Assembly: GCA_963662465.1 (NCBI GenBank)
Contig: OY759599.1
Location: 2,624,001-2,688,000, forward strand
Direction of reading: 5' to 3'
Origin: Desulfatiglandales bacterium
GTDB taxonomy: Bacteria > Desulfobacterota > DSM-4660 > Desulfatiglandales > Desulfatiglandaceae
Length of the DNA stretch: 64,000 bases
Part shown: in pieces, positions 742 through 3,189 of the stretch
How the letters are laid out: each line of letters opens with the position of its first letter
Position numbering within the stretch: the first letter of the stretch is position 1
Notes under the pieces: generated by a model
What the model saw: only the letters and a program-made list of their open reading frames with translations
What the model was told of the DNA's origin: nothing
Databases searched by the model: none
Translations under genes and position numbers: made by a program

Positions 742-931
742 CGAAATCAGCTTATCCCGGAAGAGCCCGACTCCCCACACCCTCAAAGCGGTAAAAGCCG
801 CGCAGGGACCTTCGCGAGGCCATCCAGCCCCGCTAGCGGCCCCGACACGGAACATCACTTTTTGCCCCGCCGCAGCGAGGACGGGATTTTCTCAGGGTCA
901 GCGGGCCGGCATCCGCCAAGGCCCGGTGAGC

Positions 932-1060
932 TGAAGAAAAGGCAAGCCGAAACCCGAGGTTGTTGTTCCGGTTGCCGGGCGTGTTCCTGTTGCGATTGGC
1001 CGACCGGCAGTTCCCGGCGTTGTTGTTCCAGCCACCGCCCCGGTTCACCCGGTTCGAGCC
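932..1060 (-). repeat. DGR template repeat (TR)
   Basis: 129-nt copy of the 3' end of the 2074..3189 gene (VR 2083..2211) with 13 AAY codons (reads GSNRVNRGGGWNNNAGNCRSANRNRNTPGNRNNNLGFRLAFSS). 21 of 25 mismatches to the VR fall at TR adenines. Confidence 0.95.
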
Positions 1061-1457
1061 TTCAGAGAAAACCCGTAGTCACGAAACTTCCGAACAAATC
1101 TTTTCTTGCTTGAAGTTGCCAAGCGAATTTTTCCCGGCAGCGTCTCATAAGTATTCAGTATGCGGCGAAACAAATCAAGGAGTTCTTTGTCCTTGAAGCG
1201 CCTTCCCAGATACCGCAACAGTATTTCATGGTCGATTGAGTTGAAATATTTGGCGATATCCAGCTTCAGATACCAGTCGAAGCACCGTGAAAACCCCTGG
1301 GCCCGCTCAATGGCCTTGCGTCCTCCCTTCCCTTTTCAGCAGGCGTAGGAATCGAAAATAGCATAGGCGTCAAGGGTTTCTTCGCAAACATTCATAATGG
1401 CGTGATGCACGGGACCCGTTCCCTAATTTTATGATAAAGGTTGCCGGTCCGTTTCAT
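1045..1457 (-). pseudogene. DGR reverse transcriptase remnant (deletions, frameshift, nonsense codon)
   Basis: Manual translation: MKRTGNLYHKIRERV, frameshift, then VHHAIMNVCEETLDAYAIFDSYAC*KGKGGRKAIERAQGFSRCFDWYLKLDIAKYFNSIDHEILL...NTYETLPGK fused to IRLATSSKKRFVRKFRDY. These are DGR-RT motifs; the GLPIG and YxDD regions are missing. Confidence 0.88.
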
Positions 1458-1935
1458 CCGTCTGCTTTACGCCTTCCGGGGCATTCCGATCACCGGCCAA
1501 GATCCCCAAAACCGCATTTCCGTATTTCTTCACCCGAGCCTCCCCGACGCCTGAAATTTCCTTCAGTTCCATTTTCGATGCGACCTTTTTCGTCGCCATC
1601 TCCGCCAATTGTCCGTTGGTAAAGACAATGTAGACCGGCACGGCCTCCTTCTCGGCAACCTGCTTTCGCCAGTCCCTGAGCTTTACAAAAAGGGCAAAAT
1701 CAGCGGGCGAAAGAATTTCCCGGTAATCCACCCGCTTTCTGCCCGCGTCTTTTGGCGATGTATCGCCGTCGGACATATATTCCACGGCCATGGTCCAGAA
1801 AGAGTTTTCGCCCTGGCTCACGAATTCCCGGTGTACGGTGAGGATGCGCTGTGAGCGTAAAAAGTGATTGAGTTCCATTTCCACTTCCCGGGTTGTCTTA
1901 AGCGGGATGGTGAAGAATTTATATTGTATGGTCAT
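1429..1935 (-). CDS. HRDC-domain protein, DGR accessory gene
   Basis: LFVKLRDWRKQVAEKEAVPVYIVFTNGQLAEMA...ELKEISGVGEARVKKYG is an HRDC signature. It lies between the VR and the RT and overlaps the RT start. Confidence 0.88.
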   Translation of the reverse strand: MTIQYKFFTIPLKTTREVEMELNHFLRSQRILTVHREFVSQGENSFWTMAVEYMSDGDTSPKDAGRKRVDYREILSPADFALFVKLRDWRKQVAEKEAVPVYIVFTNGQLAEMATKKVASKMELKEISGVGEARVKKYGNAVLGILAGDRNAPEGVKQTDETDRQPLS

Positions 1936-2073: not shown

Positions 2074-3189
2074 TCACTGACCTGATGAAAAGGCAAGCCG
2101 GAACCCCAGGCCGCCGCTCCGGTCGCCGGGCGTGCCCCCGCCGCGATAGGCCGACCGGCAGAGCCCGGCGAAGTCGCCCCAGCCGCCGCCCCGGTCCACC
2201 CGGTCCGAGCCCGAAGAAGGCCCTGTAGGATCAGTCACTGAACCGGAGGGATAATCGCCGTACCAGTCCTCGCACCACTCCCAGACATTGCCGTGCAGGT
2301 CATACAAGCCCCAGTTATTGGGTTGTTTCGTTCCCACACCATGGGCATATTTATCGCCAACATCCCAGGCATTTTTGTCATACCAGGCATAACTTCCGAG
2401 CTGTCCATCGCTATCCCCGAAACAAAATTGCGTGGTTGAACCGGCTCGGCAGGCGTATTCCCATTCGGCTTCCGTCGGCAAACGATATTTGTGGGTCCCC
2501 TCTTTGCCATTCAACCTCTGAATAAACGCCTTGCAATCCTCCCACGACACATAAACAGCCGGGTTGTTCGCATTTTCCTGTACATAGTCCTTGCCCGACC
2601 ATGGCCTGCTCCCCATCACCTTCTCCCACTGCCCCTGGGTCACCTCCGTGGTCTGCATGTAATACCCTTTGGTCAGGGTCACCCGGTGCTGTTTCTCATC
2701 ATTATCCCGTCCCGACTCTCCCGATGGGCTCCCCATCATGAAACTCCCCGGCGGAATATACACAAATGCCATCCCCAGGCTGTTGGTCACTTTCCCGGCG
2801 GCCACGGGCTGCACTACGACCGGTCGCACCGGCGGCGCCACCCGCACCGCCGTAAGCCCGATATCGACATTTTCGTCCTGCTCCGCCGAAAGGGTCACCC
2901 ACCGTTTTTCCGTCTCATATCCTTCCGCAGACACCTCCACATGGTATCGCCCCGGTTCCAGTTCCATCCCCTGGTAAAAGGCCGGCCCGATGTTCAAAAT
3001 CCGCACCCGCGCATTCTCGGGCATGGTCTTCACAAACAAACGGGCAGGCTTCGGCTCAGGGAGCTTCTGCTCCCACACCGGCTCGAATTTTTCAACAAAC
3101 CATGCCCGGCCGTGGGGCGTATGGAGGAAGAGGCACCCCAGGATGCAGGCAAGACTGAAAAGGGCTTTTATCTTTGATCGTTTGGTCAT
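2074..3189 (-). CDS. DGR target protein: signal peptide, PEGA-like domain, FGE-sulfatase (CLec-fold) domain
   Basis: FGE motifs F.MGS, TEVTQGQW, P.VYVSWED, RLPTEAEWEYACRAG, N.WGLYDLHGNVWEWC.DWY, RGGGW, GFRLA. Hydrophobic N-terminus. Probable start MTKRSK at 3189 (ORF track 3255). Confidence 0.92.
   Translation of the reverse strand: MTKRSKIKALFSLACILGCLFLHTPHGRAWFVEKFEPVWEQKLPEPKPARLFVKTMPENARVRILNIGPAFYQGMELEPGRYHVEVSAEGYETEKRWVTLSAEQDENVDIGLTAVRVAPPVRPVVVQPVAAGKVTNSLGMAFVYIPPGSFMMGSPSGESGRDNDEKQHRVTLTKGYYMQTTEVTQGQWEKVMGSRPWSGKDYVQENANNPAVYVSWEDCKAFIQRLNGKEGTHKYRLPTEAEWEYACRAGSTTQFCFGDSDGQLGSYAWYDKNAWDVGDKYAHGVGTKQPNNWGLYDLHGNVWEWCEDWYGDYPSGSVTDPTGPSSGSDRVDRGGGWGDFAGLCRSAYRGGGTPGDRSGGLGFRLAFSSGQ
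2083..2211 (-). repeat. DGR variable repeat (VR)
   Basis: Encodes GSDRVDRGGGWGDFAGLCRSAYRGGGTPGDRSGGLGFRLAFSS; aligns without gaps to TR 932..1060. Confidence 0.95.

Follow-up and report, generated by a model that had tools for sequence, protein, structure and literature searches.

What has become of a DGR whose reverse transcriptase (RT) is mostly gone while its other parts are still in place? This question is raised by cassette A, an HRDC-type (Avd-less) DGR on the minus strand that occupies the first 3.3 kb of the window, the 64-kb stretch of Desulfatiglandales DNA analysed here. The original prediction left two answers: either the DGR is frozen on one selected variant of its variable repeat (VR), or it is a non-autonomous cassette whose template repeat (TR) and HRDC gene are used by an RT encoded elsewhere. 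As set out below, cassette A is probably a frozen relic, its RT destroyed and its sequence drifting silently ever since. Its parts follow the order target-VR-hairpin-HRDC-RT-TR-spacer RNA:

2074 to 3189, minus strand: target gene, 371 aa, with an N-terminal hydrophobic (signal-like) segment, a PEGA domain and an FGE-sulfatase (CLec-type) domain with the VR at its end
2078 to 2211, minus strand: VR-A (variable repeat), changed at 21 of the 28 TR adenines, 16 of these to G
1993 to 2072, no strand: imperfect 32-bp inverted repeat at the DGR-hairpin position, starting 2 nt past the target stop codon (z -7.5)
1429 to 1935, minus strand: accessory HRDC gene, 168 aa, frame open, with a beta-alpha-beta-beta N-domain (1-55) and an HRDC domain (80-146)
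1045 to 1457, minus strand: RT remnant, 413 of about 1044 nt, identified by motifs, tblastn and alignment to intact orthologues
1064 to 1074, minus strand: upstream strand of a cPRT-Stop-like duplex, pairing with 894-883, with 10 of 11 pairs kept in cassette A
927 to 1060, minus strand: TR-A (template repeat), with non-adenine mismatches to the VR at 1034, 956, 950 and 935, plus the family-wide C/G at 930
797 to 930, minus strand: structured spacer RNA 3' of the TR, with duplex strand 894-883, a stem-loop plus A-run and a long hairpin

The FGE-sulfatase domain of the target was recognised at E 1.6e-44, VR-A lies within the last 45 codons, and the target of a related locus (L066) has the same architecture and falls in the same length class. 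The HRDC domain matches PF00570 (E 8e-19) and the RecQ HRDC fold (rmsd 0.9-1.1 Å), and the N-terminal domain, a separate beta-alpha-beta-beta fold unit, is found in all full-length relatives aligned. Aligning TR-A (1060-927) with VR-A (2211-2078) gives 26 mismatches, 21 of them at TR adenines. The signals expected on the target side, namely the family-wide C/G at the TR/VR 3' end (IMH-type) and the hairpin at 1993-2072, appear to be present; a genome search for the inverted repeat found no further copy. The original prediction had also pointed to possible other VRs matching TR-A; when the whole genome was scanned on both strands with changes at adenines tolerated, VR-A alone came up (four non-adenine mismatches, the next best site having 19). 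A scan for sigma-70 promoters and terminators stayed at chance level.

The collapse of the RT to about 410 nt was borne out, with 413 of about 1044 nt retained from 1457 to 1045. With the intact genomic RT paralogue as query, tblastn matched the interval at E 5e-37, and the piece after the stop codon gave a weak Pfam RVT_1 match (E 0.003). All the motifs that had been named are found on the minus strand where they had been placed: MKRTGNLYHKI from 1457, RERV, VHHAIMN, SYAC*KGKG, LKLDIAKYFNSIDH, and ETLPGK joined to IRLATSSKKRFVRK. Related genomes with the intact cassette do exist: two of the same genus (L024, L025) carry it whole, with 347-aa RTs, and the lesions were called against these orthologues, a comparison with L051 giving the same picture. 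The remnant lacks the GxxxSQ and YxDD motifs, but intact orthologues possessing both share 77% DNA identity with it, so it is a decayed member of the DGR RTs. Five lesions were recorded, three deletions (207, 279 and 147 nt), an insertion and a nonsense codon:

1426 to 1427, minus strand: deletion junction 1, 207 nt, 2 nt beyond the HRDC stop codon, frame kept
1410 to 1411, minus strand: +2 insertion (frameshift), from alignment to intact orthologues
1336 to 1338, minus strand: TGA nonsense codon at a conserved Arg, from aligned intact relatives
1129 to 1137, minus strand: deletion junction 2, 279 nt, at a 9-nt direct repeat, taking out GxPIGN..SQ and YMDD
1074 to 1075, minus strand: deletion junction 3, 147 nt (171 nt against L051), in the thumb, ending at the first base of duplex strand 1074-1064

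The loss of the GLPIG and catalytic YxDD blocks, both inside deletion 2, and the TGA (1338-1336) in place of the usual Arg, which the aligned intact relatives have, are therefore as first described. Other details needed amendment. MKRTGNLYHKI is indeed joined to the RERV region, but that join is in frame, and the frameshift placed there is the separate insertion at 1411-1410. ETLPGK is fused to a thumb-like segment as proposed, and the third (thumb) deletion had gone unlisted. The RT frame does end inside the TR, but this is not damage: intact relatives likewise end in GFSxKART* over the TR start. With its frame broken twice, the remnant no longer carries translation as far as the TR.

Retrohoming overwrites the VR from the TR, and sites other than TR adenines should therefore match. 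We counted four mismatches at 88 such sites in cassette A and six at 81 in cassette B, a second DGR of the same family described below, against six at 1200 in 14 RT-intact relatives pooled (Fisher p 0.003 for A and 4e-5 for B), ten of which had none; L040 and L058, which have VR indels, and L045, where the motif was not found, are outside this count. At 950 and 935 it is TR-A, not VR-A, that departs from the relatives. The difference between four in 88 and six in 1200 implies that VR-A is not being rewritten. This comparison, the most direct test at hand, goes against present activity in trans, and a hybrid complex should also serve TR-B. Cassette A thus does not appear to undergo ongoing mutagenic retrohoming. 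Mismatches at the TR 3' end were also considered as an IMH/IMH* difference and this was rejected, since the relatives have identical TR and VR at those sites, which makes them drift. Read as a clock, the TR/VR mismatches correspond to about 2.3% per copy (95% interval 0.6-5.6%). Among the changed adenines themselves VR-A is unusually rich in G, with A to G at 16 of 21 against 92 of 229 in the 14 relatives (p 0.002), an excess that places many glycines at variable positions.

The intact HRDC and TR next to the damaged RT had been taken as a pointer to trans-activation. HRDC is open and both are full length, but neither is free of damage, point erosion being present in both. HRDC-A has seven private amino-acid changes, where three RT-intact relatives have 1, 1 and 2 and two relatives with a dead RT have 4 each; the TR/VR clock predicts 7.7 neutral changes for HRDC and 4.8 for the RT block, and 7 and 5 were observed, in counts that are limited to columns invariant in relatives and in which some changes date from when the cassette still worked. 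Three HRDC-A residues occur in none of 29 relatives. The pairwise dN/dS of HRDC-A (0.04-0.12) is not raised, a measure that is blind to a short dead period. Spacer position 836 is C in cassette A and G in all 21 others, lone deviations at invariant spacer columns being seen in live cassettes too, and the spacer helices, with 1 broken pair among 33, are no worse kept than those of live cassettes. Taken together HRDC, TR and spacer seem to drift like a young pseudogene, at about the neutral rate. The pointer is a weak one, because three deletions make up most of the RT damage and point decay is at just about 2% throughout; without selection, an HRDC frame at the TR/VR-clock divergence would be free of stops with a probability of 0.6.

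The pseudogene reading and the frozen branch of the original prediction are thus supported, the latter by the non-adenine mismatches (4/88), by the point erosion of HRDC and spacer and, as described below, by the frequency of broken RTs in the family, the lack of a second family RT in other genomes with a broken one, the loss of a core part from every DGR of this genome and published precedents; nothing shows, however, that the fixed variant had been selected. For the trans branch the outcome is split: an intact RT of the same family is present in the genome, but VR-A has not been refreshed from TR-A. In other words the parts list of a non-autonomous cassette appears complete, and a sign of the helper acting on cassette A appears absent. 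In its live state, we propose, RT and HRDC protein would have bound an RNA reaching from the duplex strand at 1074 through the TR and spacer, and the adenine-mutagenised cDNA made from it would have overwritten the VR of a secreted CLec-fold binding protein. Loss of the RT would have stopped retrohoming and fixed the VR as it then stood, and about 2% substitutions (95% interval 0.6-5.6%) would since have built up in each of RT remnant, HRDC, spacer, TR and VR. Cassette B, even when whole, would evidently not have kept VR-A matched to TR-A.

One feature is unexplained by the frozen-relic reading: the RT-A deletions look constrained, being in frame and bounded by edges, which hints at purifying selection on the retained cis parts after RT loss, whereas the substitutions fit neutrality. 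All three are multiples of 3, and five of six within-RT deletions in the family are in frame (p 0.02-0.11), a count that leaves out three deletions in the target gene or across the HRDC-RT border, which translate out of frame. The two outermost breakpoints are 2 nt away from the HRDC stop codon and 0 nt from the duplex strand; under random placement both would fall within 5 nt in about 0.2% of cases and within 20 nt in 2%, figures calculated post hoc.

The second of these edges belongs to an RNA structure of the whole family. In 22 of 23 family loci the RT 3' end pairs with the spacer in an 11-bp duplex that leaves one base unpaired (T in 21 of 22). The free columns of this duplex carry compensatory changes, and a stem-loop and A-run follow it; the call rests on an anchored register, with three G-C anchor columns fixed by the search patterns, and free duplex-folding energies differ from shuffles at p below 0.05 in 6/23 loci only. 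In the spacer RNA of about 135 nt (930-797 and its relatives), 28 of 36 pairs covary with two-sided changes over 22 loci, a level reached by none of 500 shuffles, the structure scored having been drawn from the same alignment. An Rfam search with five loci returned no family (one chance match, E 0.82). The long hairpin has a GGUA/GAA internal loop, which we take to recall the bulged-G (loop E) motif.

The arrangement resembles the cPRT Stop of BPP-1 as given in the text of bioRxiv 10.1101/2023.10.23.563531, with an 11-bp duplex between a segment upstream of the TR and the spacer, one unpaired U, and then a stem-loop and adenosines; there the upstream strand is essential for cDNA synthesis. Unlike in BPP-1, the upstream strand here is the RT 3' end and not avd, and the family has HRDC and no Avd. 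The survey in that preprint deals with Avd-bearing DGRs and five archaeal genomes, and its supplements or journal version may cover HRDC types. By analogy we infer that the duplex of the HRDC-type family may act like a cPRT Stop.

Could cassette A nevertheless be served by another RT of its genome? The candidate is cassette B (C1:1,132,958-1,134,560; L016), 1.49 Mb from cassette A, whose RT-B (C1:1,133,289-1,134,293; 334 aa) is intact, has YMDD, belongs to the same family as RT-A and is followed by its own TR. HRDC-B by contrast lacks about 45 N-terminal codons and carries a -1 frameshift; that this 1-nt shift is an assembly error is unlikely given the indel rate in repeats. The sole VR of TR-B lies 1.83 Mb away, in a target of about 1380 codons (C1:7,465,363-7,469,499; L017) with a -1 frameshift near its start. 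In relatives the target lies directly upstream of HRDC; a relative, L023, has a homologous target in cis that has lost 3459 nt in frame. TR-B and its remote target each precede near-identical (97%) copies of a nuclease gene (L016:8795-9844 and L017:8444-9409), presumably Rpn-like to judge from sequence type, and the repeats upstream are common to both.

On this basis A and B might complement each other now, by duplication-degeneration-complementation, with A non-autonomous and giving HRDC protein and TR RNA, B giving the RT, and VR-A still being diversified. We consider this improbable. It accounts for an intact RT-B beside a truncated and frameshifted HRDC-B, and for RT-A deletions that respect both functional edges and the frame; A and B do have the same covarying spacer fold and duplex, but their spacers are only 63% identical, RT-B is 55-57% identical to A-clade RTs, and neither VR-A nor VR-B is matched to its TR. 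RT-B is conserved beyond its own TR/VR clock, with one deviation at 117 conserved columns where 9.8 are expected had it drifted as long as TR-B/VR-B (p 0.001), yet this good state is explained equally well, and without action in trans, if B recently lost its cis target and HRDC 5' end. An alternative VR base at the TR-adenine position 2162, seen in run X2 (10-fold against 16.9-fold) and in X3 among the matches listed, would suit continued diversification; it may however belong to a co-occurring sibling population, since these samples hold one. The private lesions of HRDC-A and spacer A, and a remnant in which translation stops short of the TR after two breaks in frame, likewise speak against a cassette still in use. 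Components of BPP-1 do work in trans, according to the text of PMC5758913.

A similar reciprocity was observed in the Avd-type DGRs of this genome, both with MutS-tailed RTs. Cassette C (C1:403,300-408,000; L018), with three VRs of which one is remote at 591,994, has an intact RT and TR and a TAG in avd; cassette D (C1:3,601,300-3,605,800; L019) retains avd intact, and a 1.8-kb IS marks the point where its TR 3' end and RT N-terminus have been lost. Reading of the TAG as pyrrolysine was rejected, as none of 48 tRNAs has a CUA anticodon and no pylB scored above the cut-off. All four DGRs therefore lack a core part. In both pairs the loss is reciprocal, with the RT surviving in B and C and the accessory gene in A and D, a pattern that would fit complementation and equally four separate knock-outs in a genome rich in elements. 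In BPP-1, RT, Avd and TR are all required, according to the text of PMC12875486. Many near-identical repeats of 1.7-4.7 kb mark the genome as element-rich, and a stretch of about 10 kb at 91,899 occurs again at the contig end. A third bAvd match, at C1:7.113 Mb, had no DGR RT or TR found with it. We infer that cassette B is not a working helper but an independent DGR whose crippling is more recent.

Just as improbable, in our estimate, is that a non-autonomous phase lies in the past: selection would still have acted on HRDC and the DGR RNA when the RT was trimmed, RT-B or a copy since lost would have served them, and the arrangement would later have lapsed into what is now a frozen relic. In-frame deletions with the HRDC stop and the Stop-like duplex as their limits would be natural products of such a phase; selection, however, removes deletions that cross an edge and does not itself place them on it, and short repeats by themselves bias deletions to frame (from 33% to 50% at repeats of at least 7 nt). 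The family offers both kinds of case. Searching by HRDC, blind to the state of the RT, we found 41 loci, of which 35 were assessable after setting aside four at contig ends (L039, L050, L052, L053) and two with partial HRDC only (L068, L069). HRDC is followed by an intact RT in 24 relatives, and in 11 of the 35, about a third of the family, the RT is broken or missing, often with the TR lost too, some of these loci being near-duplicates. L056 independently repeats the pattern of cassette A, with a full-length HRDC, a twice-deleted RT and the TR kept, and its last deletion, like that of L043, stops shortly before the duplex strand (within about 20 nt and at 25 nt, respectively). In L046 and L067, by contrast, a deletion runs across the HRDC-RT border, and L047/L048 and L066 lost the TR; the counts are small and post hoc. 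A second RT of the family was found in none of five other genomes with a broken family RT, three of which are small or fragmentary. The edge-bounded in-frame deletions, the Stop-like duplex and the well-kept RT-B nonetheless leave some room for a non-autonomous stage, past or present. That two half-dead DGRs complement each other, with A reduced to an HRDC gene and a minimal DGR RNA run now or until lately by RT-B, and with the same split in the Avd pair, seems to us unlikely without being negligible.

It is very hard to credit that the retro-machinery itself made the deletions, an RT stalling at the duplex, jumping upstream on an HRDC-RT-TR mRNA and the short cDNA recombining back, with several blocks removed at once. 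Three large deletions with little point decay (no missense change at 28 conserved columns of the remnant apart from the stop), a breakpoint at the duplex edge and 47 RVT_1 matches in the genome, most of them group II intron-like, would suit this; but BPP-1 synthesis halts before the duplex and not after it (text of bioRxiv 10.1101/2023.10.23.563531). Self-mutagenesis of RT or HRDC by the DGR RT was rejected as well: there is no adenine excess in the retained RT block (A sites changed 3/58, C sites 6/30) or in HRDC (A 5/85, C 6/59), and so the DGR RT did not copy these segments.

The least credible explanation is an assembly artefact, with the RT intact in the cell and collapsed in the assembly, and collapse is unlikely because cassette A lies on a single contig without N and pairwise alignment of the genome's repeats (3.04 Mb at 99% identity or more) gave no more than 445 gap openings; the repeats at the junctions measure at most 9 nt. 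The proposed check of read support gave a mixed answer: among the contigs listed, none crosses a junction with 31 nt to either side, but two contigs end exactly on junctions 2 and 3 (1129 and 1074). Such ends suggest a non-deleted allele in the sample and are as expected if deleted and non-deleted alleles coexist there, a branch at the junction implying both. The TGA is covered without difference, 23 nt from the contig end, by a contig (1184-1361) of run X3, a second sample, and the independent point erosion of TR, spacer and HRDC likewise counts against an artefact. Runs X1 and X2 possibly come from the source sample itself and do not count as independent; X4-X7 gave small shares, X4 distant relatives only, and were not used as evidence. 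One X1 contig has the VR-matching base at 935 and one X2 contig the consensus base at spacer 836. X1 and X2 also contain a co-occurring allele with 26 differences in the 266 nt of 1468-1733 (the HRDC 3' half) and about 1% in the flanks, a possible recombinant patch, and an X3 contig of 1287 nt at 252-fold depth is identical to HRDC-A over 224 nt (1677-1900) and then continues into unrelated sequence.

Cassette A most likely descends from an HRDC-type DGR and is, as far as its sequence tells, a decayed member without an intact RT or retrohoming. HRDC-containing DGRs are Architecture C in the text of Wu et al. 2018 (PMC5758913), with a Treponema denticola representative in that of PMC4891356. 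Cassette A agrees with these in the HRDC gene overlapping the RT start, the FGE-sulfatase/CLec target, the adenine-specific TR/VR differences, the chromosomal location and, judging by cassette B, a possibly remote target; it differs in its order HRDC-RT-TR, the HRDC gene of T. denticola lying between TR and RT as described in PMC4891356, and further in that the cassette has no avd and its RT is destroyed. DGRs with an inactivated RT and intact VR and TR appear in Fig. 4 of Schillinger et al. 2012 (PMC3521204) and in Trichodesmium erythraeum IMS101 (PMC4143802), where they are read as recent inactivation. There too the RT is knocked out and TR, VR and target are left. The cases in the text of these two papers, however, are single stops, frameshifts or IS insertions, unlike the three deletions reaching the accessory-gene and DGR-RNA edges here, and cassette A has in addition accumulated non-adenine mismatches and has an intact same-family RT elsewhere in its genome. 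Several DGRs per genome are common, according to the text of bioRxiv 10.1101/2024.11.15.621889. Our literature search, which did not cover subscription journals, found plasmid-borne trans expression and remote targets, and no natural case of one DGR running the template of another. Non-autonomous retroelements exist, for example group II introns that have no ORF and depend on a related RT. Cassette A is like these in keeping its cis RNA, having lost the RT gene and having an intact relative in the same genome, and unlike them in showing no sign of a helper acting on it; to our knowledge a DGR does not use its RT to spread, and helper action would therefore leave no copy-number signature.

As a frozen relic, cassette A would represent an ordinary fate of DGRs that is here well dated, since TR/VR drift, HRDC erosion and the sibling allele agree on about 2% of neutral time. 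A BPP-1-like, RNA-controlled architecture for priming and stop in Avd-less HRDC-type DGRs is suggested by the family-wide duplex and the covarying spacer, which also supply RNA boundaries for reconstituting the HRDC class. RT-B, HRDC-A, RNA-A and RNA-B form a natural pair for asking whether DGR parts cross-react; were complementation true, this would be a natural non-autonomous DGR, with RT, accessory protein and RNA mixable across cassettes only about 56% identical. Finally, two small membrane-type ORFs lie downstream of cassette A on the plus strand (474-650 and 655-741), the first of which matches DUF6722.
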